54,713 nt of DNA from Chromera velia (taxonomy: Eukaryota): contig JAHBMJ010000191.1 in assembly GCA_018398765.1 (NCBI GenBank), positions 1 to 54,713 of the forward strand. The letters run 5' to 3'. Shown in pieces: positions 11,475 to 47,700 of the stretch; the first letter of the stretch is position 1, and every line of letters begins with the position of its first letter. The notes under the pieces are model-generated. The model was not told the DNA's origin and did no database searches. It was given only the letters and a program-made list of their open reading frames with translations. The position numbers were made by a program, and so were the translations under genes.

Positions 11475-14400
11475 ATGTCGCAATCAGTTGAAAACTTCCT
11501 GAGCTCTCCTCCAGGTTTGTTGTTACCGTTTTTCTACTTTGCGAAGGCAGACGGCTTGCACTCTTTGCAGTTCTTATCGATTTGTGTGTCGATGCAGATT
11601 TTCATTTTCTTTCGGCCTCTTCTCTGCTTCGCAGATGCCGAGAACTCGCGAAGTATCAGCACTCGATCTATGCAGACGACAGACAACGTGCTCTGTTCGC
11701 TCATTGAGCACGCTCGTCCTACTGCAGAGGTGAGGCATTGTCCGTCTCCTCGTCGTGCGGGGACTGTTCGTCGACCTGAGTCCCCTGCTTGTCCTTCCTT
11801 GTTTCCTTTGGTTGCTTCGACAAAGAATACTTTGACTGCTACTCCTTGCAGGAGATATCGGAGCTTGCCTGGGACAGGAAGAGCTTCGGCTTGGCGTTGG
11901 TTCTTCTGGGGTTTATCCGAACGGTCAGTCGGAGGCGGATATCCTTTGCCCTGCTTTCGGTTTTGGTGTCCTCTCATACGAAAGTGTTCGAAGAATAACA
12001 TGAGCGATCGTGAAGAGTTTGTGCGGTATGCTTTTGAGCCCATCTGTGTGGTTGGTGTTTGCCTCTGTGCAGGGACGCTCACTTGTGCTCCTGACAAGTC
12101 TTGACCTTTCGGGTAGGTGGCGGAAGAGGTGAATCGAGTCCTCTTTTGTTTGTGTGCTTCCTTTCTCAGCGACTTCTCTCATGCAGTTCCTTGACACTTT
12201 GTCTTAGAGCTGCGTTTTGCATTTCTGTTGTCTGAAGTCAGACGTCCCGTCCCTTCTGCTGTTCTCCATTTGTCGCTTTTCTTCTTACTCGTTTGGCTTT
12301 GAAGGTCGCCTACCTTTTCAGCTGGCTCCTTTGGGCAGAAATTCGTGCATGCAAGCAAGAGATGAGTGCATACCTGTTTGCAGGCTTCTCGCTGAGTGCC
12401 CGCAAGCTGAAACTCCTTTTATCCTCCCGTCCCTCGGGGCCTGGAGCTGTGGAGACGCTCAGATGCGGTCAGCTAACGGATAGGCGACGGCAGTGCCAGG
12501 GATACCTCCGTAGATGAAAACCTTCGCGCGAGAGGGCAGCACCAGCAGTATCAGGGGAGGAGTAAAGGAGGCTTTGCCTTCCTTTCTGTCACGAGGAATA
12601 TGAAACATGCTCAATCAGTCTGTCTCTCTGACACGAACTGTTCTTTGATCACCGTCTTCCTCCCTGCAGGTCCTTCATGTCTGCAAGGACGCTTGCCTGC
12701 CTGTGCTCCTCGACTTCCTCCTGCGACTCAAGGCGGGGGTGACAGTAGGGGTGTCTTCGATCTTTCTGAAGACCCTCAACCTTGCCAGTCAGTCTTGTGC
12801 TTTGCTTGGACGGCCCGTGCATGAGACTCAGTTGTTCTTGCGTGAGAAAGTGCGGGTAACATGCTAGATGAGATCATATCTCTACCTGTGTGTCGTCATT
12901 TTGGGTGAATTCCTATCAAGTGTCTACACGAAATCCGGAAATCGGCAGACAGTGGCTGAAAAGAAGCAGAGTCTTCGCTCCCCCCCGACCCCCCCTCCCC
13001 CCCCAAATGCAGAGTGCGATCTCGATGAGGCCGCTGTTGCGCTGTTTCATCAGCTCCCTCGCTCTCTTCAGCACCTCGATCTGTGTGGTCAATCAGTCAG
13101 TCAGTCAGTCCCTCAGGGGCGTCTGAAAAATTCCCTACGTGTCTTCTGCCGAAGAAAAGCGCCACTCACTCTGGATTCCAGCGATGGGATCTGGGAGGCG
13201 CTCTATCTCATCTTTCTTGCGTTTCTGTCTGTGGTTGTTTGTTTGAGTTCGGATCCGTTGGTCTGTTTTTGTGCTTCTTTTGCGGTGACAGGGGAAAGAA
13301 GAAATGATATCGTGTCTTGGCAACCCAGCTTTCAAATTTCACTATTTAAATCGGTGAATCGGCTCGGCTAGCGAAGAGAGACGATGCGCTCCTTCCGTTC
13401 TTTTTCGGTTGGTTGGTTGGCTTTTCTGTCCCTTTTCCTCCACACAGTGTCTCTTCAATATGGATTTTTCTTCTTGTATTTGCAAGAGTCACGCACTCGG
13501 ACAGCATTCTTCTAATGCTTCGCCTTCTGTATTTTGGTTTGGGAGCGGTTGGCAATCAATGGTTCGCTTTCGTGCTACTCTCTTCTCACCTCTCTATTGT
13601 TTCTTCTAAGTCCTGGGCCTTTCATTGCATCTCCACCCCCCGTCCGAAACACTTGTCCCTCATCCCATCTGCATGCAGGTAACCGACTCCGGAGTGTGTC
13701 CATGGAAGGCCTCGGGACTGTCTTCTCCTTTGGCTGGCTCCCGTCTCTTCTGAACCTTGACTTGAGTGACAACCCGCTCGGCCCTTCAGGGCTGCGGGCG
13801 TTTGCAAGGGGCCTGTCTTCATCCCCTCAGTCACTCCCCCTACAGTCCCTCAAACTGGCCCGTACGAAGGCCAAGGCAGAGGGGGTGGAAGCATTAGCAG
13901 AAGCATTGAAAGCAAAGACTGTGCCTGACCTGAGAGTTCTGATGCTGAAAAACAACCGTCTGGCTAATTTGGCACCGGGAGAGAGGGACGACGCCCCCAT
14001 AGCCGAGCTCCTCTCCACAAGTGCGTTGAAGGAGTTGGAGGAATTACACTTAAATGAGAATTCGTTGTTCGATGAGAGGTTAGCGGGTGGAGAGGAGGGT
14101 GAGGGTGAGGGTGGGGAAGGGGGTGAGGGCGAGGTTTTTCAGGCTTCTGCTGCCGCCCTTGCAGTACCAGGTCGTTTCCCTAATCTGCGACGACTTGATC
14201 TGGGGGGGCGGTTATATTCGTCAATGCGCTCTGAGCAGTTTCTAGCCTTTGCGACTGGTTTGGGGGTGGGGGGGTTGCCGTCTCTTCAAGAGCTCGTCAT
14301 CCCCAGGTGGGCTTCTCTGGGGAATCCTAGTACTGAAGGCGTCGTTGCTCTTGCCAACGCCCTCAGTTCTGGGCAGCTGTCTCAGTTGAGGGACTTGCAG

Positions 14401-15983
14401 ATAGAAGCTCGAGACGACATGACAAGTGATGCCTTCGCGACTCTCAGTCGCAGCCTGGCAACAGGAAAGGCTCCCCTTCTGCAGAGTCTAGATCTTCAGA
14501 TGTGGAATGAAAATGCCGAGGGGGGAGTGGAGGCCCTGGCTGAGGGACTCCCGCGGGGGGGGTTGTCATCTCTGACGAGCTTCAGGCTCGATGCACGTGA
14601 CATGTTTTGCACAAAAGGGTATGCGTTGTCGACATTAGGTCTTGCCTTCGGTGGTAATGGTGGGTGTCCTGCTCTTCAGAAACTCGACCTTGAGTGGGAC
14701 GAAGAAGGGGATGAAGGGGTTGGGGGACTGGCGGAGGGTCTGGGTAGCGGGGAGTTGTCGTCTCTTCGAGATCTGTCACTCAGAGTGACATGCAATCAAG
14801 ATGGAGAGGGGGAATTGAGCGGGGAAGGATGTGTAGCTCTAGGAGAGGTTTTGAGCACCGGTAAAGTGCCTTCACTCCGGAATGTGAGCCTGGTTTGGTG
14901 GTGCAACCAGAGCTTTGTTTCTCTCTGTGAGGGTCTGTCTCGAGGGAGTGTTGACCCTCCTGTGATGGTGGACCTTGGCATAGACGTAAAATTCGGGGAA
15001 GGAGAAAACACAGATTTGGGGGTCACCAGATTTGCTGAGGTCGTTCGGGCAGGCAAGCTCTCGGGGTTGCGGAATGTCAATGTTTTGGGGTATGGGTATG
15101 AGTTGCTTAGCAGAGCTGGGGGGAGAGCATTGGGAGAGGCCCTCACACACGCAGATGCGTCTCTGAACTCTCTAGAGAAGCTTTGTATCCCTTGTCAAAC
15201 AGAGGAAGTAACTGCGGCCTTTCTTGAAGGCCTCGCGAGAGGTCCGGGACGTCTGCCGGCCCTGCACACCCTCTGGTGCCCCGGCATCCGCAGCATCAGA
15301 ACACAGGGTGCTCAGTCTCTGTCCAACCTTGTGAGGAGGGGCAAGGTCCCTTCCATCAAGGAGCTGAGAGTGAACTTGGCGGGGATTGGGCAGGAGGGGA
15401 TGCAAGCTTTTGCTGCTGCTCTGAACACTTCCCATGCCTCCGCGCTGCGACGATTGGAAATTATATTTCCTGGTGTCAGTCCTGCAGATGCAGCTGCAGA
15501 GGTGGGGTTGTTCTCAGTTGCGCTGAGCTCTACGGGCTGGAGGAACTTTGGGTTGGGGGTCTTCGGTTGATTGAGGAGGTCCGTGCGTTGTGTGGGGGGT
15601 TGGGGAGTGGTAAGTTGACTTCCCTTTTGACGCTCCGTCTTGTTGGCTGCAGATTGGGGTCTGAGGGGGGAAGGGCTCTCTCAGAGATCTTGACTGCAGA
15701 GAAGTTGCCTAGCCTGAGAACGCTAGCCGCACAGACGACGGAGCTCACAAATGAGGGAGTGAGGGCACTGATAGAGGGGTGGACGAACAGAGACCCGCCT
15801 CCTCTGCAATGTGTGGATTTGGGGTGGAATAGGCTCAGTGGCGCTGTTGTAAATCGGCTCTTGAGATGTGGATCAAAGCGATTACCTGCTCTAGAAAGCT
15901 TGGACGTCTTCGGTAATTTTGGGGCTGACCAGGCATCTAGAGATATGCTCTTCGGAGTGTTTCCAGAAATTGTAAGGCTTTGA
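11475..15983 (+). CDS. Multi-exon RNI-like leucine-rich-repeat protein with a frameshift near 15530 (possible pseudogene)
   Basis: Short GT-AG exons (MSQSVENFLSSPP; EISELAWDRK...; LTSLDLS; FLKTLNLA; SLQHLDLC), then a long exon from 13679 with many LxxLxLxxN/G repeats. The LRRs continue in a second frame from 15530 to 15983. Confidence 0.85.
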
Positions 15984-18029: not shown

Positions 18030-18985
18030 CACTATCCATCTCCTTCTTTATGCCCTTTATATATAGCGTGTCCCGCCCACTCTCTGTCGCATTTCGCTCT
18101 GTGAGTCTTCTAGTGAACCTTTTGACATGTAATACTGCAATAAGTTGCAACTTTGCACTGGCTGCACCTCTTTCCCGCACTGCTGTCTTCGTATTGCCAG
18201 CATTTTAGGGTAGCCTGCGCTGCAGAAGTGTTGCAAGATACAAAGGTCGGTTCCACGGTCAAAGAAGACGCGCTAGAAGATGTGAGGCTTGGGACGGCTG
18301 CACGTAGAACGATCGAGTCACGGTCTGCGGGTGTAGAGACGGGGACAGTCTCGCGCATAGGCGGAAAGACGAAGTCTTCATCTGGGGATGTGGAGACCGG
18401 ATGGCTCTCTGCAGTTAGAACTGTCACAACAGGGTGACTGTCTTGTTCTGCACTTGCAGGTTGACCTGAACTGGGTGTGTTGCGCAAGACCTCGCTGTGC
18501 ACAGTGATATTGCAGTTGGGGGGAGGAGAGACGTGAAGGTGGTTCACTTGGTGGGACAGTCTCGTGGAAGGCATACGCAACTGGGCATCTGCTGTGGCAT
18601 TGCTTCCAAAGCCTCTGGCCTTATCAGGAGCCTGGTAGAAGGGCCTTGGAAGATATGGATACCATGGATGAGCTGTGGCTGATAGGTCGCTGGAAGGATG
18701 CGACGAGGGGAAGGCGCTCGGAAGAACGTAACTGTTTTCGTTTCTGCCATCTCCCTCTCCTTGAAGGCTTAGCGCCAGGAGCCACTGCAATCTCGACCAG
18801 CGCTTGCCTCTTCTGGTTGACTTGCGAAAGGAAACGCTACTAGGCTTGCCCGTCTCTTGAGGGTTCGTTCCGGAGCTGCACTCTTGCAAGATTGTCTCTT
18901 CATCCCTGGAGACGGAAACACTGGAGACGGAAGAAAGTGTTCTCTGAATGTGTTGTAGAGAGCTGATGATTTCCGCGACCTGCAC
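18030..18985 (-). pseudogene. zf-MYND-containing gene remnant
   Basis: KCWQY...KRCSQCKVATYCSITCQKVH*KTHRAKC matches the MYND pattern, with TAG at the conserved Trp (18110-18112). Confidence 0.7.
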
Positions 18986-19555
18986 TGCATTTAAATTATC
19001 TCAGTGGTACCTGTCTATACCTGGGGGCCGCCGCGTAACTAGCCGTAACGGTATTGTGCCATCTCTAGTTTATCATATAATTTAAATTACAGTCACTACA
19101 GTGTATACTATAGTTTCAGTGTAACGAGGCCTAGAACGAGACGTAAAGCAGTTTAGCATATATATGATAGTTCAATATATGAAATAGTAAATCTAGAAGA
19201 TTCATACCCAGATTTCAAACTGACTTATACACTAACAAGCATTCATACAGTTATATGCTTGGTTACATAAAAATTACTTATCCTTTAGTAGTATTTATCC
19301 AGTACTATATGATCTAATAATTATTTATTTATTGAGCTACTCAGTGATAGCAGTAGCCTGTAGGTTCAATCCACCTGTTTAATACATGCCTTGTGTATAG
19401 GTATCTATCAGTGCAAAAGCGTCTTACTGTTATACTGAGTAGAGACCAAAGCAAAAAGCACTGGCATTCTTTACTCTAGTCCTTACTATACATCTGATAT
19501 TGCAATAGGATCGCAGCTAGGACCACTGGCACAGAAAAAGCCTGCTCGGATCTTT

Positions 19556-22473: not shown

Positions 22474-24094
22474 ATGGCGGTGGCTGGCTTTCAGGTGACC
22501 CAAATTGGTCTGGAGAAGGCCACCAATGTTGATATTCGCTTGAGGGAGTGCCTCCTCCAGCGATTGGTTTACAGTCTTCGTTGCTTCAGCGGTCTGAATG
22601 GCAAAACCCCGGCAATCCTTGCAAACCTTCCGACATGCAAAGACTGTTCCGGTGATGCCACGAGGGCCATTCTGTATCTTGCCAATTCGCCTCTGATGAG
22701 GGTGCGTATCAACAACTTCGTTGTGGTGGTCAACGCTCAAGACCCGCGCCTTGAAGGCCGCAACAACGTGTTCCACAATTTGACCGTCACAGAGCTACAG
22801 GCTGCTGGACTGAATATCCCGGCACAGCTCGACGTCATGGCTTCGGAGCACACGGAGACGGAGGTCGAGTTGATGTTCTGCTCCCCTTTCTGGCTGCAGA
22901 AGTTTTACACCAACCCACTGCGGATTCTCAACCCGCGTAATCCATCTCGGTTTCTCTGCGAGGAATGCAGTGGTGACGATGCATTTTGCTGTTTCGGACA
23001 ATCGGCAAAACCACAGACTTGTGCCTACCTCCGTCATGTCCCTGTAGATCCCGGTTCTGCTCTTGAGATCAAATTGAAGCACAAGACCAGATCTGCACTC
23101 ACAGCTGCAGGAAACCCCTCACCTGCACCGGCTGCCTCCAGGCTTGAGACAGCCCGGGCTCTTTTGGAACAACCCGCTGACGTGGCGCGTCTCAGCAGGT
23201 GTGTCGAGATCGCTGAGTCTGCTCCACAGGGCCCGGACAGGACGCAGATTCTGACTGAAGCCTACACACAGCTTGCGGGGACAGCGTTGGACCAGCGAAA
23301 CCCCCGACTGGCCCTGACTATGCTGGAGAGAAAGCAGAGAATGGTCAGGAGAACAACGGCAGAGGACTGCTGGCTGATGGGAAGGGCGAATCAGGTACGT
23401 GAGTCAGCGAGCAGTCAATTTGAAAGCAGTATGACGGCATGCCGGCTTTTTTTGTGTTTTTGTTCCCATGCTGACTTCCGTGCTGAAGGAAATTGTGGGG
23501 GAGCCAGAATGGGCGTCCACGTGTGAGAATCTCGAGATTTCTGCAAAGGAATTAAGTTGTGTTGTTTGAAGTGGATTTTTTCTCTATTTTGATGTCATCT
23601 ATTCACACTTTAATATCATGCAGGAGCTGGGACAAGTGCAGAAGGCGCGTGATTGTTTCGAGGCGGGGACTCAACTGCGAACATCTGCGCACCAGTTCAT
23701 ATGTGCTCGGGAGCTGGGCGACATGTGTGCCAGAGGAATGCTAGAGGCTGCAGAGGCACGGAATGCGTACAAGCGCGCAGGGAGCCTCTTTACGCAAAAC
23801 TGGCCGGAAGCGACGGCACAGGGAGCGTTGGTCTTCAACAACTACGCCGATCTTCTCTGCGACAAATTTGGTCACTTGGATGATGCGGAGCGTCTTGCAA
23901 AGAGGGCGATTGAGCTCGACGACCAGAACGCTTACTGCCACGCAACCCTTGCAGAGATTCTGGCGAAGAAGGGGGGGAACCGGAACCTCCTCAGGGCGTG
24001 GGACAGCCGCAGAAAGGCCGAGAATCTGGGTGGAGAGGATATTCGCCAAAACTTTCAGCAGAATAAGTGGCGGGCCCTCTTTCAGGCAGCGTGA
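22474..24094 (+). CDS. Two-exon protein of about 463 aa: unrecognised Cys-containing N-terminal domain plus C-terminal TPR repeats
   Basis: Exons 22474-23394 and 23624-24094 (GT-AG, phase 0). TPR-like motifs WLMGRANQELGQVQKARDCFEAG and FNNYADLL..FGHLDDAERLAKRAIELD..NAYCHATLAEIL. Confidence 0.8.
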
Positions 24095-28166: not shown

Positions 28167-31100
28167 CTAGTCCACTTGTCGATTTCTAGGACCTTTTCTT
28201 AAGCTTTCGGCCCTTTTGAGAATTTGGGACGCTGTCGGGGCACACGTCAACGTGCTGTGGCGCTTTGCCGACTTGGAGGTTGGGGAAGGAAGGGAAAGCA
28301 GATTGGCGGCAGACATGAGAGAGGAACGCCGAGACCTCAGACTACCTGTCGTCCTCGCCCCGTCCGATCCTCCCTGCCGTTGGTTCTGCAGTCACTCACA
28401 CTCACACAGGCGGATAGAGAGATAAACACACAGACAAGAAGATAGAAAGATAAACACACAGACATACAAACAGGCAGACAGAGAGATACACACAGACACA
28501 CAAACAGGCAGAAAGAAAGATAAACACACAGACACACAAACAGGCAGACAGAGAGGTAAACACACAGACACACAAACAGGCAGAAAGAAAGATAAACACA
28601 CAGACACACAAACAGGCAGAAAGAAAGATAAACATGCAGACACACAAACAGGCAGAAAGAAGATAAACACACAGACACACAAACAGGCAGAAAAGAAGAT
28701 AAACACACAGACACACAAACAGGCAGAAAGAAAGATAAACACACAGACACACAAACAGGTAAACAGGCAGAAAGTCACACACACAGGCACACGAGCAGGC
28801 AGAAGGATAGATGTACAGATGAAGAGGAAGGCGTAAAGAAATTCGGACAAATGAACAGACAGATAGAAAAACTGACAGTCAGAGAGAGTGAAACGGAAGT
28901 GATGCACGCGGAGTACGTCTATCACACACTGCGTATGTATCTACATGCCTCATGAGACGACGCAAAAGGAAACACAGTCATCTCGGATGGATGGCAGGAA
29001 CGACTCTCACACGGTACCCCCCCTCCCCGGCCTTACAGATGAATTACGATGTCCGAACCCACGGTGATGCTTCTGGTTGTCTAATGTCTACGTGCAACAT
29101 CCAGATGCCCTCAGTTGCTGTACTAGCAGAATCACTACAGCACTGACCGTTCCATCCTCATCCTCTGCTCCCATCTGGTGTTTTAGATGGTACTGCTGCC
29201 AGAACACCGGCAGCACCGGCACCTTCTGCGTCCCTGCCTTCATCTGCGCCTCCGCTGCTGCCTCGTTCTCTGCCCAGAAATCTCTGTTGCCCTTCATGTA
29301 GGTCGTGCAGACCTTCATGGCTGGGAGGACCTCTTCCATGGCCGTCAGGAGGGGAACGACGATGACGTCAATGAACCCCACCTGCCCCCTCGCTATGTTC
29401 GTGCTGGCTCTGTCCATCAGCATGGAGATCGGAAGGCCGTTCTCCCTCTCCCTGTCCCCCTGAGAGAAAAACTCCGTCATGACGAGCTCGGTCCATTTGC
29501 GGTATGCAGGAAGCGGCCTGCAGGTATTTGATTTGATTTGTGTGTCCAATGAGGGAGAAAAAAAAAAAAAGAAGAAAAAAAAAGAGGTATTTGATTTGTG
29601 TGTCCAATGAGGGAGCGAGGAGCACGTCAAAGCCACAGAACAGGGACAGGGGGACCATGTTTGTGCAGATGACGCAAACGGTCTTCTTTGCTGTCACATT
29701 GATGTGCGTGTGTGGTGGTGGGGGCTGAGAAGAGGAAACAATGAAAAAGCATAGACAATCATGTCTCTCGTATCCTCTGTATGCGTTTGAACGGAAAATG
29801 CGCAGAAAAAGTCAGTGAAGAGAGAACAAACAGCATTGTATCATAGTCTTTTAGCCACTCTCACATAGAGAAAAGACAGAGTGACAGACTGACCTACCGA
29901 GCAGGGTTGCTGATGTCACACGCATGGACTGCGACCGAGAAGAGGAGCATTTTGTCCTCGTTGGTCATTTTCGGGTTCTCTATCCAGGACTTGGAGGCCG
30001 CGCTTTTGGCCTTGAAAGCCCCTAACTTGGAGAAGTGGAGGGTCATGTCTGTGGACAGGACGATGGTGATGAGAATCTCCCGAATCACCGCGATGGTCTC
30101 TGTGGGCAGGTGGGACAGGAAGGAGGCGTCCTCCCTCACCAAGAGGGACCACACAGCGGAAATGTGGTGGTTCTCCAGAACGGAGCGGTCGTTGTAACGA
30201 ATCGCCAACGGGTCTCCCGTCTGCGTCATGTGCACAGAGTAGAAGTGCACAAAAATGCATCGGTCGGTGAACGCACATACACATACATGCACATATGCAC
30301 ACCGACACAAAGGGAAACGGGGAGGGAGACAGAGTTCGGGACTCGGAGCGCCCACACCAGAATCGAATACACACAAAACTTTCTGTCCATTGAGCTGGCT
30401 GGTCGTCACAGGAGAAAAGCGCGTCGGATTTCTGGAAACAACCTTTGTCTTTCAGAGACCGGAGCTGCTCTGATGCTGAACAAGTTTTCTAACCCCTCCC
30501 TCTACAGCAAATGAGAAAGGTTGCACACAAAGGGCGCCCGGTGCCCTTTTCTTTTTCTTCCCCTTTTTGTCGCTTCTTGCGGTGATGAAGCGATCCAACC
30601 TCTGTTTTTTTCCCTTCATGTTAGAAAATCTAAACGTTCACATGCATCTGTCAGAGAAAGCGTCCCCCTGACCTTCATGAGAAAAGCGTTGTTGACTCCT
30701 GGATGGTCGTAGTCGTGGGCAGCAGCCGCCAGCACGACGGAAAAGAAATCAACCACCGAGAAATCCGCCATATTCTCCGACAGGCCCCCCTCTGCAAAGA
30801 AAGCGGGGGAACACAACACGAAAGATAATATCAAAAATGCTGTTCTCGAAACACTTGTATGGTTGTATTTACTTTCTCTCACTGATCTGGAGCTATGCTC
30901 TTGGTTTGCATTTCCAAACTCAAGACAAAAAATGATGCTGAAAACTCGCCATTCTCGAGCTGCACTTCAGACATACCACAGAAAAGGAAGACCGCTAGAG
31001 ACATAAGAAAGAAAAGTTTCGATAGACAGCAAACGAGGCACATAGACAAATCTGACAGACAGGCGGACAGACGCACACACTATGTGTTTCTTCTTCTCTC

Positions 31101-33711
31101 TTCTTTTCTTCATGTACATAACAGTCCGAGAGGCAGACAGACAGGCAGACAGTCAGACAGACGAAGGCGTGAAAGGAAGAAAAATTGGACTCCTCACGTA
31201 CCTGTGCACACAAAGTAGGCTGCCTGGGTGACGTCGGCAGCATGCAGAGCCTTGTGGTACGCGTTCTCTGCGCAGTACCCCCTCTCGAGTCTCCTCACGA
31301 ATCTGTGCCACTTGTCTGAGGGGATCTGGAGGTCATCCAGCAGAGAGTGACGCAGCGTGATGTGGTTCAACAGGGCCGCCAGAGAGTGCTCGGCAGACGT
31401 TTCCTGCGATTATTACAACCACCCACAAGAACACAAATTGACTGTCTATATTCCTGCGATTGTTACAACCACAAGAACACAAATTGACTGTCTATATTCC
31501 TGCGATTATTACAACCACAAGAACACAAATTTGACTGTCGATGTTCTTTATTCTGACCACGTATGATGATGTAGCTACGGCTAACCGCTCCGCAATCTGG
31601 TGGGCCGTTTTCGTTCACAACAAGGAGGAAGAACAGCAAAACGGTTTCTCTCTTCTGCCCATGCACGCACCTCCAAACGGAATACATCGAATTCCCATGT
31701 CTCCGCCTTCTCGAGGAGGGTCACCAGCTCCGCCTCCACAGAATCCGAGAGTTCGATGTTCAACACTCGCCCCAAAGATCCCTCGCCCTGCATGCATCGT
31801 TTGGACAGAACAGAAATTTTCAGAGCAGAAAAAATCTGCTCTGCATCGTATGGACAAAAATCTCAAATCAAGAAAAGAGGTCGACAGGAAGAAAAACATC
31901 CCTTCCAAAAAAGCCAGGACGTTACTGAGAGGAGGAGGGCGCAGGCAGAACCACAGAGCAGGAACGCACAAAAGCAACGCAACATCGACATCATCATGCA
32001 TGCATACAGGCATTGAATACTGCTGCATAGAACGTCAGGACCTTGACAGAGACAACAAGAAACAAGGACGGAAGCAGGCTAAAGAAAGAGCGTAGGGAGA
32101 GGCAGCGAGGGTCGGAGGGAAGCAAAAATGTAGAGAAGGCCTGAAGCGGCGGGGGGCATCACACGCACACTCACGCAGCCAATTCTTTTTTTGTTTACCG
32201 ACCTCCGAATCGGTTTTGTGAAGTCCCGCCAGAGCCTCTGCCGGAATGTTTTCGCTGGCCCTCGCCAACATTTCCGCAGGGCTCTCTTCCACTGCCATCT
32301 CTGGACTTGATTCGCTTCCCTTTGAAACAACCCTCTCGGGCCCACTTCCAGTACCACTGGACCTAGTGTCGTCCCCTATTTTGAAACTAGTGTAGGTGGG
32401 GACCTGGTCTATTGTGGAGAGATGCCGCCTGTGTTTGGTAGTCAGGTCTTTTCTCTGAAAGTACACCGACGCCTTCTCCCGATCTGGAATGTACAGCTTC
32501 CCCCTCTTTCCTGTTTTGAACCACCAAGTGGCTTCCTGTTTGAAGCTGTGGGCTCCAGGGGACACCCCACAGTCAAAGACTTCCCCTGGTTCTAAAAGGT
32601 CTCCAGAACTGAGGAGGGCAATCACTTCGGCAATCTCTGCACTGTCCATGTCATTCTGCGCTCTTTTGAGAAGGAAGAGACACCTGTGGAGAGGTGACAT
32701 CAACCCGACAGAAACTGTGTCGCCAAGTCTTCGGAAGACCAAGCCCGAAAGTTTCCACTTACGAAGAAGTAGAACAACTCTGAATGCATCTGCTGGGCCT
32801 ATGAGCATCTTCTGCTTGCTAGGAAAGTGTAGCAACGCCCCCGTGAGACACAGAGACAGTCCAATGAGGCCCAGGTCAAAAAGATCCCATCTCTCGAGGA
32901 CCTTGGGAGCAGCGGATCGGACTGATTTGTACAGAGATTCTACCAGAAAGAGGACCAGAAGAAGACCCTCGAGACTCAAAAGAGTCTTGTCAACCCGCCT
33001 CCCCGAGGTCCGGTGGGAGTGGGAGAGACAGAGAACCATCACCAGGCAGAAGTAGGCGCACACGACTGTTGCAGCAAAAAGGTCGAGTAATGCCGTCTTG
33101 TAGGCCAGCCTCTTCCCTGATTTGGAATCTGGATGCGCAAAGAGAGACAAATCGGACAATTGTTTTCAAGCATGCAGGACCAAAGGGGTACTAAAGCATT
33201 TCAACCGTGCATGCATGCACGGATTGGAAGGTTCGCTTCTGCACACATACGCACACTGGTTGACTCTCAAGAAAGTACAAGATGGAGCCACCCAGACAGT
33301 CAGTCATGCACCACGTCATCAGCGATTGAGTGAGGTCTTAAAGACCCGCAAAACCACAGACAAGTCAACGTAGCGCGGTCAGTCAGTCTGCGGTGTATGC
33401 CCCTTGCACTATACGCATCCTGTGAGCTCGTCCGTGAGCAATGATTCAGGCAACCAATTGATGAAACACAATGCCATCCGCCAAATGAGGAGCACATATA
33501 CGCATGAGACCCTTGCAGGTCTGTGTAGACACGTAGGCATGCACCTGTACGTTCATGAGGCCTCCCTAGCTCCCGTCTATGTATACATACAGACATGTAT
33601 GGATGCACAGCAACAAGACTCACCTCTCCTCTTAGACTTCTCCATGTCCTCCTCTCCAGACATTGACATGGATCGGGAGCCTTCAGGAGGATCCACCGTT
33701 ACAGGGCTCAT
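28167..33711 (-). CDS. Class I 3',5'-cyclic nucleotide phosphodiesterase with an N-terminal 4-TM voltage-sensor-like domain
   Basis: Phase-compatible exons 33711-33624, 33128-32203, 31787-31671, 31403-31202, 30791-30673, 30220-29898, 29517-29148, then less certain 29087-29037 and 28385-28167. PDEase_I motifs WEFDVF, YHKALHAADVTQ, HDYDHPGVNN, LENHH, TDM, HACDISNPAR, EFFSQGDRE and QVGFID. Confidence 0.92.
28420..28775. repeat. 36-bp minisatellite (about 9 copies) in the last PDE intron
   Basis: Unit GATAAACACACAGACACACAAACAGGCAGAAAGAAA. Confidence 0.92.
31401..31540. repeat. Three tandem 46-50-bp repeats overlapping a PDE splice acceptor
   Basis: Unit TTCCTGCGATTATTACAACCACAAGAACACAAATTGACTGTCTATA. 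Confidence 0.9.
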
Positions 33712-34362
33712 TCTTTCCGAGTTTGTTCGAATCTTCTTGCCATGCAAGGTTTCAACCACAAGTCAGGTCAGTCCCAGGGGACATGACGAGAACATCGCCT
33801 CAAATCGCGTGCGTGCGGGGCGCGAAGAGGAAATTTCTGCACAGACAGTTTCTTTGCGGTCTTTCTTCTACTGCACAAAAAGCAAGATGGGAAGAAGAAG
33901 GATCCGTTTTCGGTAGCTTAACTCCATTTTTGTGACTCACCTGCATTGCATGTGAAAGTGATTTCAGATATATATATATATATCGACTGCGGAATTTCAA
34001 GGAGGCGCGCGGTTTAAGTTGCGCGCGCAAATTGTTGCATGCAGCTGTATAGGGGTCAAAGTTTTTTGTCAATTATCTATTCGCGCGGCTATATAGACCA
34101 AACTATTCATGCATATAACTAGCCTGGGGCATCCTGGGGCTAAATTCCGTAAGGCGTCTCCATGCATGGCGTCTCCATGGCAGGAATAATTTTGGGGCTC
34201 AATTCCGTAAGGAGCCTGGAAGGAAAAGAGAGGGAATCCTTTGTCCTGGTGAGAGTACAGCTATATCCAGAGGTTCCCAGTGATTTCTTGACTTCACAAG
34301 ACCTTGCGCGCGAAGCAAGGTGCGTGCTTGTTTTCGTTCCGACTCTTTCGAAAGTTCTCAAA

Positions 34363-35539
34363 ATGTCGGACGAAATCAGGCGCCTTTTCCTTGATGCCTC
34401 CTTCGCTGCTCCTGGAAACAAAAGCCATGCGGAGAACGCTCTTTGCCCGATCTGCAAGGACTACATAGAAGATGCAAAAGAGGTGAACTGCAAAGCAAGG
34501 CACGTCTTCTGTGGTCCTTGCATCACAAAAGAGTACGAGAGACGCCAGACTGAAGGTCTCGCCCAGAAGTGCCCAACCTGCCGGGGACCCTTTTCCACGT
34601 TGGAAACGTCCCCGCCCCAGCTGCGGAATTTCATTGAAGAGGTCGAGTGGAAGTGCCTGAATCACGAGGATGGTTGTGGGTTTACAGGGACGAAGAAGAA
34701 ATTGGAGAAGCACCTTGATGAGGAATGTCCTGAGCAGGAGACGAAGTGTCCCTTCCAAGGTTGCACACAGAAAATGAAGAGAGGGCCCCTTGCCGCTCAC
34801 AAAGTGGACTGCAAGTTTCGCCTCATCCCCTGTGAGTTGTGTGAGCAGCCAGTGCGCTTTGGCACCAAGACCGCCCACTCGAAAGCCTGCAAAAAGGTTC
34901 GCGTCTCCTGCCCCAACAGGTGCGGGCAAAAGTGTCTAAGGGGGGAAATCGCTGAACACAAGAAGACCGACTGTAAAGAGCAGCTTGTGAACTGTCCTGT
35001 TGCTGGTTGTGGGGACAGAGTGAAGAGGAAGAAGCTGGACGAGCACGATGACGCCAGCGTGAAGAAGCACTTCAAGCTCCTCCAGCGCGAAGTAGAGATC
35101 ATGAAGTCTCCTGGTCGGTTTTCTCCTCCCCAACGCTCCTCTGCTGATCCAGTATTGGTGTGCATCTGTGCATGCAGATGCTGTCCCTTCTTTCCTGTCC
35201 CCCTTGCCTCCTCACTTCTTCTGCAGACACAGTGGAGGGAACCGTGAGACTTCCGAACTTCAAGGCGAAGGCTCCGCGGCTCGGGAAGAACGATCGGCTC
35301 CAGTGTGCAACCTTCTCTCTGAAGGTCCGACCGACTTTTGTCTCACATACAAAAGCTGTTTTCATTTATGTCCTCCCTCATCGTCTTTGACCCCGCATCT
35401 CTGTCTGTCTCTGTCGAGCATCTTTTATTCCCTCTTCCCTCTCAGTTCCGTTTTCTCTTTCTTCTTCCTTCCCTCCTTCCCCGTTCTTTTCCCTCCCTCC
35501 CTCCCTCCCTCCCTCCTTTCTGTTTTTCTTTTTTTCTTC

Positions 35540-38401: not shown

Positions 38402-41400
38402 GGGGGTTCATTCGTCCTTCGACGTCCCCCTTCGGTGCGCCGGCATTCTTTGTGAAGAAGAAGGATGGCACCTTCCGCATGGTGATCGACTACAGACCTC
38501 CCAACAAGGTGACGGTGAAGGACACCTTCCCACTCCCGCATGCAGAGGAGCTGATGGAGACCTTCTTTGGAAAGAGATGGTTCACGAAGCTAGACTTGCG
38601 TCAGTTTTTCCACCAGCTCCGCATTACAATGGGAGACAGCTACAAGACTGCTTTCATCACCAGGTAGGAAACATCTGAGTGGTTAGTAATGCCCTTCGGT
38701 GTCTCGAATGCACCGCCCGCAAGCATACGACTGATTACGCTTGCGATACGACCTGCACTAGGCCGGTGTGTCATCGTCTTCATCAACGACATCCTTGTGT
38801 ACAGCCGGACACTGGCATAGCATATGAAGGACATTAAGTGGGTACTGGATCTCTTGAGAGTGAGCAATCTCTATGTCAAGATCAAGAAGTGCGAGTTCTT
38901 GACCAACAGCACCCACTTCCTGGGGTTTGTCATCGACGCGAAGGGCATCATGCCCGAACGCCTGAAACTCGAGCTCATTCGAGACTGGCCGGATCTAAAA
39001 GACCTACACGAGCTGCGAATCTTTCTCGGGGCAGCCAATTAGGTTTGGAAGTTTATGAGAGGTTTTGTGTCGATCGCGCAGCCCCTGACGAAGGCATTGA
39101 AGAAGGGAGTGAAGTTCACGTGGATCGAGGAGATGAAGACAGCCTTCTGCTCACTAAAGGAAGCGATCATCAACATCACCTCGCTGTACATCCCCGATCC
39201 TGAACATCCATTTAAGATCTTCGGGGACGTGTCTGAACAGAGGAATGCACTCGGAGGTGCATTGATGCAGCAGGACCCATGTGTTGGTTGGCTCCGTCCG
39301 GTGGCCTTCGCATTGAGAACACTGATGAAAGAGGAGAGGAACTACCCAATCAGAGAGAAGGAGTTGCTTGCTGCCATCTTTCTCCTCAAACACTGGTACC
39401 CGTACGTCAGTGAGACGACGACAGTGTGGACAGACTATGAGAGCCTCAAGACACTCGACTTGACAGCTGCATCTTATGCAGAAGCTCGAGGACGTGTGAG
39501 GAGATGGATGTCTTTCCTGCAGGAGCTGGGGGTGAAGCTGAAGTACCTCCCAGGTACGAAGAACACTCTCGCCAACGCCTTGTCTCAGCATCCTCTTTCA
39601 GAAAGAGCATACGCAGCAATGGGTTATGAGATTTGTTTGCAGACGAGCAGCAGCCTCCTTCTAGATAAAGACTTTCTCCAGAAAGTCAGAGATGGCTATC
39701 GGAAAGACAAATTCTTTCACGATGCCCTGTTCTTTCTGTCTCCACGTGCTAAGGGACAGAAGCGAGAGGAGCCGCCGCCTTTCTTGCGCTTTCAACTGTC
39801 ACATATGGAGATGAGAGACGGACTCTTCTACTATAAGAACAGGCTGGTCATCCCCATGAAGAAATTGCAGAGAAATCTGATCTTTGAGTGTCACGACGTC
39901 CCAGGCGCGGGGCATTTGGCGATTGAGAAAACCTACCTACGACTGATTGAAGACTTTTACTGGCCAAACATGTTCTCTTCAGTCGCTGCCTATATTCCTC
40001 GCTGTGACGCGTGCCTCCAGAACAAGCAAGCGAATCAGAAGCCTTTCGGACTTTTGCAACCCCTGCCTATTCCTGCTCGGCCTTACGATTCGGTCTCGAT
40101 AGATTTTATCTATGCCCTCCCACGTGTACACTTTCAAGGTGAGTGGGTGGACTCAGTTCTGACTGTGGTTGATCGTTTGTCCAAGCGGTCTCACTAGATT
40201 CCGTGTGTGATGACGATCACTGCAGAAGGAGCAGCGCGCCTCTTTTATGATCACATTGTCTGCTCCCACGGTCTCCTGTTGGAGATTATCATTGTGTCAG
40301 ATCGAGACCCAAGGTGGATGGCGGAGTTCTGGAGAAGACTGTACAAACTGGCAGGGACCCGCCTGATGATGTTATCATCCGGGCACCCTCAGACAGACAG
40401 GCAGAGTGAGATCTTTAACCGAACGCTGGAGATAATATTGCAATGTTTTTGTGGAGATCATCAGTCTGAGTGGCCCAAGTTTCTGTCATCGCTTGAGTTT
40501 GCGTGCATCTCAAGTACGTACTCAGGTTTGAAGGCAATACCACATGCAGTTCTTTACGGCTTGGAGGCAAGGACTTTCCCGTCTCTACTGGTTGTAGGAC
40601 GCACAGCGACAGTAGCAAAAGACTTTCATCTGCGCTGTCAGGCCCTCTTTAAAGAGATGAAGGAGCGACTTGAGAGAGCGAATGAAGAAGCAAAGAGGAA
40701 GGCCGACCAGAAGAGAAGGGAAGCGACTTTCGTTCCAGAAGACTGGGCGCTAGTGCACTAGAAATTTTTTGAGAGTGAGCGCCTTCCTTCCGAACGGAAA
40801 GCTAAGCTAAGCCACATTTGGTATGTGCTGTTCGAGATTGATAAGAAGGTCGGGGGGGTGAGTTATGAACTCATGTTCCCCACTGGAGTCAAGAAGTATC
40901 CAGTTGTCCACGTCTCTTACATGAAGGCGTACCCTGTCTCCCCCGAAGACCCTCCACCCCGTGTGCTCTTGCCAAGATTCAAGGAGGTAGAGTGGGAGGT
41001 CGATAGGGTCGTTGACATACGAGGGAAAGGGAGGACGCTGGAGTATCATGTGGTTTGGAAGGGATATTCGAAGACTGAAGCGACTTGGAAACCGCCCGAA
41101 AACCTAAAGAACGCAAAGGACGCTATCAAAGCCTTCAGAGAGCTTCGAAGACTTTGTTGACAAAGAGGGAAATGGGGAAGGAAACAAGGGATTCATGGGA
41201 ATATTCAGGTATGTCTCTTTCTCTTTGTGTTACTCTTATTATCTGCTTTGCTCTCGTTAATCTATTCTCCCTCACTCTTTTCCTTGACTTTCTTGTGCCT
41301 TGCTGATTAGAAACAGAATGAAAGAAAGAAAGAAAGAAAGGAAAGAAGGAATGAAGGAAATTTTTTGAGAGTGAGCGCCTTCCTTCCGAACGGAAAGCCA

Positions 41401-43348: not shown

Positions 43349-44320
43349 TCAGATTTGACTGGACTGGGCTGCTTCGAGAGAGGCGCGGGCAGACTCAATG
43401 GCTTCTCTGTGTTCCTTCAAAAAGTCAGAGGCCTTGGGGGAAGGCTGGACAGAAGGGGAAAGAGAAAGAGTAGGGAGCATGAAGGGTTCTCTTCCTTGTT
43501 CAAGCTAAAAAGGAGAGCGACCTGTCCCAACATGGACAGATGTGTTGTATGCAAACTCAAGGGACGGGGTGAATTCTGCCCATCGGTGATGCTGGGTCTC
43601 AACGAGACAACGGAGGGCCTTCTTGATTGTTCGATTCATGCGTTCTGCTGACCCTGGTGTGTCGTGGTGTGCCGTCGTGGAGAACGACAGGTGCGTGCCT
43701 GAGAGGGTGTGTAGGGTCTGCCAGAATCGAGATAGAAAACGGGGGTCTCTGTCACTGAGGATCGTACGCTGCCACCCCTTCTTTACTGTGACGTTTTCAT
43801 AATATAGCCGGCCTGCCTGCTCTGCTGTTACTGTTGTGTGGGTCCGGATTAGGCATACCCCTTTTGACAGAGAGTCAGTGACAACCATAAGATAGTCAAA
43901 CTGTTCATCCCCAGAGGTGGGCAGTCTAATGAGGAAATCAATTTGAGTGACTTCCCATGGGTAGTTGGGAACAGGGAGCGGTCGGAGGAGACCGGGTGGC
44001 GCTCGGCTGGGAGCTTTGCTTCTCTGGCAGGGATCACAAGCATAAACGAATCTGCGTACATCTCTCTACATCTGAGGCCAGAAGTACCTCTCTGCCATTC
44101 GACTGTAGGTTTTCCCAACGGTCACCCCAAAGTGTGCACTCTCTGGAGATGAGTGGCTCTCCTGAATAAGAGCCGTGCGCTGTGAGCGAGGGACACAAAG
44201 GCGGTCCCCCCGGAACAACAAACCCTCTCTCAGAGAGAGACCTTTCAAACGGGGCACCAGATAAGGGGGGGGAAGTTTGTTTGGAGAATTCTTCAGGTGA
44301 GCATGCACTGGGGCAAACTA

Positions 44321-44785
<465 letters not shown>

Positions 44786-47700
44786 TCAAACTTTCGCAAA
44801 ATGGACAATCGCCAACAGCTCTAACTCCCTCACTGGGTAGCGTGCCTTAGTGGGGGTCAGGCGGCGGGAGCCGAAGGCAAGCGGACGGTATGCCCCTGTC
44901 TTCTGACAGCGCTGAATGGCAACTGCTCCGATGGCTTGATGCAACTGTGAGGCGTCGTGTGCAATGTAGACAGGCTGACTGGGGTCAGGCAGTGCAAGGG
45001 TGGCAAGCTCAAAGACGGCTTTCTTTAGAGCAACGAATGCCTGATCATGCACAGGCTCCTACACAAAGGGGATTGAGGTGCGGAGAAGAGAGAGAAGGGG
45101 AGAAGCAACCTGGCTGTACCCCCTAACAAACTTCCGAAACTAATTCCCTAACCCCAAAAACTGACGCAGTGAAGTGCGGTCGGTCGGCTTGGGGAAGTCC
45201 TGGAGTCCCTGCACCTTCTCAGGCGCAGGCCTGAATCCACCCTCACTGATAACCAGCCCCAGGAACTTGGCTTCCGTCCGGAACCAATCATACTTCGACA
45301 GTTTGACATAGAGAGACTCGTCGGCGAGGAGCTGGAGGACGGCCTTCACATCTCTCTCGTGTTCCTTAGGAGTGCGGCAGAAAATCAAGAGATCATCAAT
45401 AAAAACAATTATACACATGTCTAATAAAGGGCGCAATGTCTTACTGATCATACGCATGCTGATACCAGGCGCATTGCAGTAACCAAACGGCATGACCAGC
45501 CACTCAAACGTACCATACCTTGTTACGATAGCAGTCTTCTCCTCGTCGCCCTCAGCCACCCGGATCTGATGGAAGTACTGTCTCAAGTCGAGAGACGAGA
45601 AGTACTTAGCCCCGTGCAGGCGGGAAATCAAGTCATACGGATGCGGCAGGGGATATCTGTCCCTCCCACAGATCTTGTTCAGCTGCGTGTAATCAATACA
45701 CATACGTTGAGTGCCGTCAGCCCTCGTGACAAAAAGGACAGGGGCAGCAAACGGGGAGTTGGAAGGGCGGATCTGACCCTTGGCCAAGTACGACTCCAAC
45801 TGTTTTCGGAGCTCATCAAGCTGCCCGTAGGTGAGCCTATATGGAGCTTGAGCAGGTGGGTGGTGACCTAGCTCGAGTTTGATGTGACACTCGACTTCCC
45901 TCTTGGGCGGGAGGGTGGGAATCTCATTCAGGAAGATGCTGAAATGCTTCTCCAGAACCTTCCTCATCCCCGGCCTCATTCCTTCCTCCTGCACTTCCCT
46001 GCAGAAATCTGTATAATCATCCGAATTGACCGGGTGATCGGGTGGGAATGACAAGAGAGGCGGGGGCTTCAGAGGATCTGTGTCGTGGCTCCTTAGATTC
46101 GGTTGACCTCCAGGGGGGAGGAAATGGAGGAAAGAGGGCAGACTTCAAGACGGTAGCACCGGAAGGTGGTAGATTCCTTCTTGGAAACCTACGGATCTCT
46201 TTGCAGGTCAGGGGCTCAGGCTCGGCCCCCGGAATGTGGTAGATTTTCGAGTCATACAGTGTGAACTACGACCCGGAGGGAGAACGATCTGCAGCGATGA
46301 AGAGACACTTCGCTTCGAAATCGGGAAGGGGTTTAAAGGTCTCACAGAAGGGCATCCCCGGGACCACATCATAATCCTCGTCCAGATCGAGTACAGTCAT
46401 GGTCAGAGGGGCTGCGAAGTCCTGAATTCTCAGATCGATGTCGGGCGCCTCCCATTGGACAGTAGTCAAAGGAGCCTGCACACCATCGAGACGGATGCCC
46501 CCTTTGCATGTGGAAGGCTCCAAGGCAGACAAACGGAACTCCTCGGCCTCAACGACTCTCTTGCTCACATAAATGGAGTCCGCCCCTGGATCCTAAAGGG
46601 CACGGATTGGGATACTATTCGCTGTGCCGTAGAAGGTGATCAATTTCCCCCTCCTGCCTGTCCTGCCCCCAGTCGTGGAGTACATCCCTCTCGGGGGTGC
46701 ATTCTGCTGCTGGCGCTGTGACCACTGGGGAGGGTTCCCCTGGAACTGCGGTGGTGGACACAGTTCAGAGGGAGGCGTAAGCCCCTGTGGGATGACTGGA
46801 TTCCCCCACTGTCCCTGCATCGAACCACCGTAGTGCTGCTGCACCCCACTCTGTAGGTTGTGCATGCGTCCTTGACCTCCATAGAAATTTCTCTGACCCC
46901 CGTGACCCCTAGGACCCTGTTGTTGCTGTTGCTGCTTGCGGTTCCTACACTGGCGTGCAGAGTGTCCCACCGCGTGACAATTGAAGCACCTATTCTCTTG
47001 AATGTGCCTCTTGATCTCATCTCGGGAAAGGGAATAAATTCGGGAGATTCGGTTGAGATCTATCGGGACGGGCCCATCGTTTGATTGGGACTGAGGTTGC
47101 AAAGGCGGGTGCGAATCACTTCGCCCGTCTCTGCCCTGACCCCCGTAGTCTTTCTTTCTCCCCCCACTCAACAGTTGCTCGGCCTCCTCTGCATCCTTCA
47201 TCGCAGCATCGAGACTGTCAGGCTTTTTCCTCCTCACTTCCTTCCTCACCTTATCCGAAAGGCCCCGAATGTAGTCGTATATCAAATCGATCTCACTTAC
47301 ATCAACGATTCCTTCTGCAATATCGTTGAATCGGACAGAGTACTTGTGAACCCCCTCATTGCCCTGACAACGGACGTTCCGGACTTCCCCTCTCAAGTCT
47401 GTCTGCTTGTTTGGATCGGGGAAACGCTCGGACAGACGGGTGAAGAGATCTTCTACGTTGACAAAAGGAGAGGCGGACCTCTGCGTCTTGTCATACCATT
47501 GCTTGAGGAATCGGGAGAAGTACTGACGCACAGACCCCAACTGCTTCGACACCTGAATATCGGAGAGCTGTATGTATTCCCTCATATCCGCAACCCAACC
47601 TTCGAGCAACTTTCGGTCCCCATGAAACACCGGCGGCTCTTTCGCCTTGAAGTTCGACCGCTGGGGAGGTGGAGAAGTCGGCTATTGATTCATCCGCTGC

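Follow-up and report, generated by a model that had tools for sequence, protein, structure and literature searches.

A transcribed phosphodiesterase of Chromera velia with a pore-less, worn voltage-sensor domain

A 54,713-nucleotide stretch of the genome of Chromera velia, an alga related to malaria parasites (assembly GCA_018398765.1, contig JAHBMJ010000191.1, positions 1–54,713; hereafter the window), contains a gene for a class I cyclic-nucleotide phosphodiesterase (PDE) that a first-pass annotation had proposed to be a voltage-sensing enzyme. The fusion it described is confirmed; its interpretation is supported in part. The gene probably, though far from certainly, encodes a membrane-anchored, transcribed class I PDE that is likely active and likely prefers cyclic AMP (cAMP), joined to a pore-less sensor domain from which most of the gating charge is gone and whose response to normal membrane voltage is likely to be weak or absent. 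On the best reading, the sensor of the Chromera copy is weakened or retuned, and those members of its family with an intact sensor are good candidates to be PDEs under voltage control.

Since 1992 it has been asked how, in swimming protists such as ciliates, the membrane potential controls cAMP; in the literature covered here, the answer was looked for only among the cyclases. At least 71 proteins, most of which have an intact S4, carry a pore-less sensor on the enzyme that degrades the messenger, which makes the link between voltage and cAMP directly testable. If voltage control holds, it would account for a domain of Toxoplasma PDE4 and PDE16 that is so far uncharacterised, and could provide a voltage-to-cAMP tool. 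The Chromera gene is ill suited to a first test but makes a good natural control; transfection of Chromera is reported to be feasible (PMC12407925).

Gene structure and transcripts

The PDE gene occupies positions 28167–33711 on the minus strand and has eight exons separated by GT–AG introns. Its 787-residue product has no internal stop and is identical to the UniRef entry A0A0G4F7T7 ('Phosphodiesterase', Chromera velia CCMP2878). Residue numbers given here are those of this protein and exceed those of the first-pass annotation by 19. The open reading frame at 32035–33159 had been taken as the membrane exon; the exon itself, exon 2, runs from 33128 to 32203, and the head and tail of the reading frame are intronic. 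The exons are as follows.

33624–33711, minus strand: exon 1, coding part; residues 1–29, start codon at 33711, transcript contigs extending to about 33865
32203–33128, minus strand: exon 2; residues 30–338, with the whole sensor domain, the helical linker and a disordered spacer
31671–31787, minus strand: exon 3; residues 339–377, where the catalytic domain begins
31202–31403, minus strand: exon 4; residues 378–444, with H427 and H431
30673–30791, minus strand: exon 5; residues 445–484, with the HD metal pair H470–D471, and H474
29898–30220, minus strand: exon 6; residues 485–591, with E500, H503, D586 and N589
29148–29517, minus strand: exon 7; residues 592–715, with Y597, Q637 and F640 of the nucleotide pocket
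28167–28385, minus strand: exon 8, coding part; residues 716–787 and stop, a Ser/Arg-rich tail of low model confidence

Transcript evidence came from four public runs (X1–X4) of one study, the RNA status of which was guessed by the tool. The predicted introns appear as joints with CT..AC ends in seven of seven cases in X2 and X3 and in six of seven in X1 and X4, and the joints flanking exon 2 (33128/33624 and 31787/32203) were seen in all four runs. All seven introns are removed within single contigs of 2,765 bases (X2) and 2,755 bases (X3), and read depth is zero in four intron or intergenic bins of the gene region. Because single contigs span all exons, the membrane exon is spliced to the catalytic exons in one message, as the first-pass annotation had supposed.

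The runs differ from the window at three positions in exon 2, of which the two listed both lie outside the sensor. Across the coding sequence, eight differences between runs and window are listed (four silent, four not), too few for a selection test. In intron 3, a short repeat (31404–31500, minus strand) gives rise to three acceptor-like AG sites with ends at 31500, 31454 and 31404; the contigs use 31404 only.

A pore-less voltage-sensor domain

By profile comparison, residues 43–155 are a pore-less S1–S4 voltage-sensor domain. We gathered 71 sensor-plus-PDE relatives by iteration within 290 proteins and excluded the Chromera protein from the profile built on them. This profile scores 26.8 bits against the whole protein (residues 42–155) and 31.5 bits against the excised sensor region; the reverse of that region scores −4.7 bits and the best of 2,000 shuffles 19.4 bits, no shuffle reaching the Chromera score. 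Of 48 other PDEs with at least three membrane segments, all but one stay at or below 5.6 bits, and the exception (19.1 bits) is a member of the family.

Taken alone, the sensor region is too diverged for sequence searches of Pfam or the PDB. Pfam Ion_trans falls below its cut-off on the whole protein (E = 0.25; 11 bits versus 25; residues 47–152, profile positions 4–104), the sensor reading frame by itself has no Ion_trans match in Pfam, and phmmer found no PDB match of the region at E values up to 10. For comparison with the PDB we used a profile of 17 sensor sequences, the Chromera protein included. Its best single-domain matches are 3wkv (76 bits; named 'Ion channel', which we take to be an Hv1 chimera), human Hv1 (5oqk, 70.7 bits) and the voltage-sensing phosphatase (VSP) Ci-VSP (66.5 and 65.1 bits; E = 2 × 10−17), and the best single repeat of a Nav or Cav channel reaches at most 57.9 bits (five alignments).

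Structure comparison had been suggested as a check on the sensor. A model of residues 30–210 (predicted local distance difference test score, pLDDT, 86.6) has the Ci-VSP sensor as its top two Foldseek rows (E = 0.033 and 0.041, probability 1.00, template-modelling (TM) score 0.61 by target), although these E values are weak and the model derives from the family alignment. Structural re-alignment fails to part sensors from designed four-helix bundles, both at Z scores of 11–12 (top scores 12.6 for SLC9C1 and 11.9 for a designed protein), and is not used as support. The Atlas's own model gave no sensor match above its bar, and language-model features lead to Ion_trans clusters at 0.77 only. Given the weak Foldseek values and the tie with designed bundles, it is the sequence evidence that carries the sensor claim. 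The helices of the sensor and of the linker that follows it are listed below.

33016–33090, minus strand: S1; residues 43–67, with D45 at the cytoplasmic start and Y55 mid-helix
32917–33000, minus strand: S2; residues 73–100, with E83, F90 and E93, the charge-transfer centre and countercharges
32827–32892, minus strand: S3; residues 109–130, with W110 and D114
32701–32823, minus strand: S4 and cytoplasmic extension; residues 132–172, predicted unbroken, with G140, D143, R146, L149 and R152/K153
32608–32694, minus strand: helical hairpin; residues 175–203, a pre-catalytic module common at family level to many class I PDEs including PDE8
32506–32550, minus strand: third linker helix; residues 223–237, Trp-bearing

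All of the sensor residues that the first-pass annotation named are present (E83, F90, E93, W110, D114, D143, R146, L149, R152, W154 and K155), and its charge-transfer centre is both real and conserved. Relatives have an acid at the E83 column in 61 of 70 cases, Phe at F90 in 53 of 71, an acid at E93 in 68 of 71 and Asp at D114 in 67 of 71; the full set of four occurs in 44 of the 72 rows, the Chromera protein among them. In S1, the D45 column is acidic in 51 of 60 relatives, and the Y55 column holds Tyr in 49 of 64 and Asp in 3 of 64.

The proposed absence of an S5–pore–S6 unit is borne out. In the Chromera protein, the stretch from S4 to the catalytic domain contains no hydrophobic segment (the mean hydropathy of 19-residue windows peaks at 0.99), and after S4 no 19-residue window exceeds 1.22 in the 66 of 72 family rows that are measurable. 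Ion_trans is matched in 47 of the 57 relatives scanned (46 above cut-off), and all 47 matches end at profile positions 104–132 of 241. A six-transmembrane channel was considered and rejected on these two grounds.

Loss of gating charge in S4

The first-pass annotation had also identified S4 by basic residues at i+3 spacing; that the Chromera S4 is a good gating helix is not supported. Counted from R146 as position 0, the family pattern is a basic residue at −7/−6, Arg at −3 (62 of 71 relatives), Arg at 0 (65 of 71), a hydrophobic residue at +3 and a basic residue at +6/+7, positions that coincide with successive S4 arginines in the alignment to repeat IV of Nav1.8. All three outer basic positions are kept in 47 of the 71 relatives and the inner two in 63; an intact example from a free-living species is P0159 of Oxyrrhis marina, with three S4 arginines. 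The Chromera protein has Ile/Gly, Asp143, Arg146, Leu149 and Arg152/Lys153 at these positions, followed by W154 and K155. R146 is its only retained gating-type arginine: the outer arginine is lost, and Asp at −3 is found in this protein alone among the 72 rows (0 of 71 relatives). The membrane part of its S4 thus lacks the run of at least three basic residues, spaced three apart, that is typical of voltage sensors, and a single further read difference could not turn the Asp143 codon into an Arg codon.

Over the sensor, mean identity with the ten closest relatives is 18%, compared with 25–40% among those relatives; over the catalytic domain it is 40%, compared with 40–44% among them. By these figures divergence of the sensor is twice that of the enzyme, the sensor having changed fast and the enzyme not, and the Chromera copy ranks as one of the most worn members of the family. 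The second S4 arginine is also lost in P0002, P0160, P0183, P0191, P0212, P0219, P0260, P0264 and P0290; since such losses lie on separate branches, sensor wear has arisen more than once among sensor-bearing PDEs.

A further proposal, that RKWK at the end of S4 recalls the Hv1 motif, did not hold up. Hv1 has the S4 motif RxWRxxR, with the Trp between the first two arginines, and requires a selectivity Asp in mid-S1. W154 instead follows the last S4 arginine at the cytoplasmic end of the helix, its column holds Trp in only 2 of 71 relatives, and Y55 stands where the mid-S1 Asp would be.

Linker and coupling

In both models (full-length and residues 30–210), S4 runs as a single helix over residues 132–172 and is followed by the two-helix hairpin at 175–203, the third helix at 223–237, a disordered spacer and the catalytic domain. 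The conserved S4 arginine and the hairpin proline are 29 residues apart in the Chromera protein and 21–34 apart in all but one of 59 relatives, a near-fixed spacing of the kind that a mechanical link would be expected to show. With S4 continuous into the hairpin at such a distance, its movement would act on the pre-catalytic helices. In the family, S4 may thus push or release these helices and so alter the activity of the enzyme, in the way that the Ci-VSP sensor drives its phosphatase, and the sensor would occupy the place that PAS has in PDE8 and operate the same helical control module.

The resemblance of the post-S4 segment to the pre-catalytic region of PDE8, noted at first pass, is found at family level: many class I PDEs without a sensor are matched by the family linker profile, as are, among 240 proteins, three PDE8 proteins just after PAS (E = 2 × 10−5, 1 × 10−3 and 0.04). 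The linker of the Chromera protein scores only 4.2 bits against this profile and is diverged, yet colinear. The full-length family profile extends into N-terminal parts of PDE4D and PDE4B chains, and aligns the third helix with the N-terminal helix (residues 20–33) of a short-form PDE4D chain, presumably the control helix of upstream conserved region 2 (UCR2) that caps the active site. A linker-only profile found no PDE4 in the PDB or Pfam, and a UCR origin of the linker is a lead only. Pre-catalytic helices of PDEs often mediate dimers.

Catalytic domain

The Pfam scan returned PDEase_I (PF00233) at 261 bits (cut-off 24.8) as the only domain, with no class III cyclase domain and no PTEN-like phosphatase with C2. 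The metal-binding and substrate residues expected of this domain are retained in the spliced exons, as first annotated: H427, H431, H470, D471, H474, E500, H503, T541, D586, N589, Q637 and F640 all match the family, Q637 and F640 being the invariant pocket Gln and Phe. With every metal ligand in place, the enzyme looks intact. Its best PDB matches are PDE4 (E = 1.6 × 10−63), in which residues identical to Asn589, Tyr597, Thr601 and Gln637 are aligned, as is the pocket Phe. PDE4-type pocket residues favour cAMP. The Chromera enzyme is likely to be active and likely to prefer cAMP. At residue 428 (31251–31253, minus strand) the catalytic motif starts YHK rather than YHN or YHT.

Family and descent

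A search for Ion_trans combined with PDEase_I had been recommended. Of 120 relatives listed for the full protein, seven carry both domains, and many more do so among the best 150 of a profile search of 1.84 billion representatives. The sensor-plus-PDE family now comprises 71 proteins or more, most with an intact S4; its members come from oomycetes, a dinoflagellate, Platyproteum and many other protists. The partial PF00520 match before PF00233 that typifies PDEs of the TgPDE4/TgPDE16 kind is above cut-off in 46 of 57 relatives; in Chromera it is below cut-off (E = 0.25), and the domain is recognised there through the family profile.

In a tree of the catalytic domain alone (51 selected rows of 253), the Chromera protein falls in a 14-row clade with support of 96/97, all rows of which are sensor-bearing (one truncated and weak); the rows closest to it belong to Platyproteum vivax and Oxyrrhis marina. 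The placement indicates that the gene descends within a clade of sensor-bearing PDEs. The tree does not recover all sensor-bearing PDEs as one clade, and three changes are needed. A word-indexed search returned the Chromera protein itself only, none of the 267 pattern matches in a metagenome scan proved to be a close relative, and the sensor alignment has no block conserved enough to scan with. Five of the 71 relatives (P0187, P0190, P0206, P0229 and P0238) have 2–4 extra hydrophobic segments before the sensor, and the four of these that are rows in the tree belong to one well-supported sub-clade.

Competing explanations

In the account that we prefer, D143 would cancel R146 and, with no outer arginine, little net charge would cross the membrane field. 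With D143 opposing R146 in this way, the sensor domain would mainly anchor and position the enzyme, the activity of which would be largely independent of voltage. Several observations weigh against this account. Sensors with few charges can still move. The S2 and S3 acids, the Phe and R146 have all been kept, although an entirely idle sensor would not be expected to keep them, and the 29-residue spacing from S4 to the hairpin has been kept as well. The continuity of the helix comes from family-alignment models, and at the junction the full-length model has a pLDDT of only about 57. The searches returned no closer chromerid orthologue that could tell selection from drift at D143. On the enzyme side, Lys428 occurs in none of 59 relatives, which have Asn, Thr or Ser there, and could affect activity; and pocket residues are, in the part of the source covered, described as unreliable for substrate preference in the alveolate PDE group (PMC10865986).

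A bolder extension, which we regard as plausible but somewhat less than evenly probable, is that alveolates and stramenopiles have an unrecognised family of voltage-controlled PDEs, in which the S4 of a stand-alone Hv1/VSP-like sensor works a PDE8/PDE4-like module as the partner off-switch to the voltage-sensor cyclases found in these flagellated and ciliated cells, the charge-reversed Chromera S4 retuning the switch rather than killing it.

That the Chromera copy is itself a working voltage-sensing PDE, with R146, R152 and K153/K155 passing F90 to switch the enzyme and D143 only shifting the voltage range, seems unlikely. It would account for the conservation of the charge-transfer residues, R146 and the linker spacing, and accords with the top Foldseek match to the Ci-VSP sensor (E = 0.033, probability 1.00, TM score 0.61 by target) and with the language-model link to Ion_trans clusters, though this is only 0.77. 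Two of the three family gating positions are lost, however, one of them with its charge reversed; R152–K155 map to the cytoplasmic end of S4; and the sensor evolves faster than the enzyme.

Less probable still is a sensor retuned to protons or ions, in which a putative titratable outer cluster of D143, E83 and H130, or a small gating-pore current opened by the gap in the S4 charges, would let pH rather than voltage set the PDE. The family sensor is nearest Hv1 by profile, D143 is unique among the 72 rows, and gating-pore currents are, in the accessible part of PMC10651576, reported only from sensors with a broken S4 charge series; but the same text treats a missing charge as insufficient for a current, mid-S1 Y55 is not acidic, and there is no Hv1-type S4 motif.

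We give little credence to the protein being a modifier subunit that pairs through its hairpin with an intact-sensor Chromera paralogue and damps or shifts the voltage response of its partner. The dimerizing habit of PDE pre-catalytic helices would allow this, and the labels of a published tree list four Chromera genes next to TgPDE4 and TgPDE16 (PMC10865986); its own intact catalytic site means that no partner is needed.

Finally, an ordinary PDE3-like or apicomplexan membrane anchor with a chance likeness to a sensor, or a gene model that fuses two genes, is very improbable: Ion_trans is below cut-off, phmmer has no PDB match, designed bundles tie with sensors at Z scores of 11–12 and the Atlas's model has no sensor match above its bar, but the exons are joined in single contigs, the profile score is far above those of shuffles and of 47 other membrane PDEs, and the enzyme domain alone groups with sensor-bearing PDEs, so that the contigs, profile scores, membrane-PDE controls and catalytic tree have already largely refuted it.

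Relation to known systems

The closest functional parallel is Ci-VSP, which likewise has a stand-alone S1–S4 domain followed by a cytoplasmic enzyme and no pore. Its enzyme is a PTEN-like lipid phosphatase rather than a class I PDE, and in the Chromera protein about 200 residues, hairpin and disordered spacer included, separate S4 from the catalytic domain. Voltage control has been shown for VSPs; the sensor-PDEs are candidates only, and the Chromera S4 is without most gating charges. VSPs are the only class of enzyme for which control by a built-in voltage sensor is known to be firmly established (PMC10651576); the word 'phosphodiesterase' does not occur in that review of sensor-bearing proteins. 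Among single domains, the family sensor scores highest against Hv1 (3wkv, 76 bits; 5oqk, 70.7 bits). Hv1 has a cytoplasmic coiled coil after S4, and in the models the Chromera S4 similarly extends into a cytoplasmic helix. Unlike Hv1, the family has a mid-S1 Tyr (49 of 64 relatives; Y55 here), no conserved S4 Trp and an attached enzyme.

Alveolates and stramenopiles also have ion-channel-like adenylyl and guanylyl cyclases, such as the adenylyl cyclases of Paramecium and Plasmodium. As far as the sources extend, these carry an Ion_trans/S4 module on a cyclic-nucleotide enzyme in the same lineages; they make the messenger, which the Chromera PDE is predicted to destroy. The ciliate and Plasmodium cyclases are described with a K+ pore (PMC10651576, PMC3283738, in the passages covered), and voltage control of the recombinant enzymes is there said not to be established (PMC10651576). 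The Phytophthora proteins PPTG_13136 and PPTG_13761 are, in the excerpt covered, S4-bearing cyclases without pore homology, one of them on the flagellum (PMC12223298). Among PDEs, the closest parallels are the cAMP-specific class I enzymes PDE4 and PDE8. PDE4 is nearest by catalytic domain in the PDB and takes its regulatory input through UCR1/UCR2 phosphorylation, here replaced by a membrane sensor domain; PDE8 has REC/PAS input, and it is the segment after its PAS that the sensor-PDE hairpin matches.

Toxoplasma PDE4 and PDE16 have been described in print as pairing a PDE with an 'ion-transport domain', not a voltage sensor, and the word 'voltage' is absent from the main texts of the three papers concerned. 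The accessible part of PMC10865986 places both in a clade B with free-living alveolates; its supplementary tree labels put four Chromera genes beside them, together with Vitrella, Perkinsus and ciliate genes, and its domain-layout figure may draw this domain for Chromera. TgPDE4 is reported to have many catalytic substitutions, whereas the Chromera protein has none at the metal ligands. A literature search that left most subscription journals outside its coverage found no paper on a voltage-sensing or voltage-dependent PDE. The sensor-PDE architecture is real, widespread and barely described: it is visible in annotations, and our searches found it neither recognised as a voltage sensor nor tested as one.

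Neighbouring features

A gene with RING and TRAF-type zinc fingers (34153–35247, plus strand) lies head to head with the PDE gene, and the transcript contigs of the two end about 370 bases apart (34239 and 33865). Elsewhere in the window, coding stretches with leucine-rich repeats, a MYND finger and TPR motifs occur at 13516–15980 (plus strand), 18113–19000 (minus strand) and 23570–24091 (plus strand). Pieces of Ty3/gypsy-type retrotransposons, with matches to reverse transcriptase, RNase H, integrase and gag, lie at 455–1429 (plus strand), 39043–40194 (plus strand) and 43508–47681 (minus strand).

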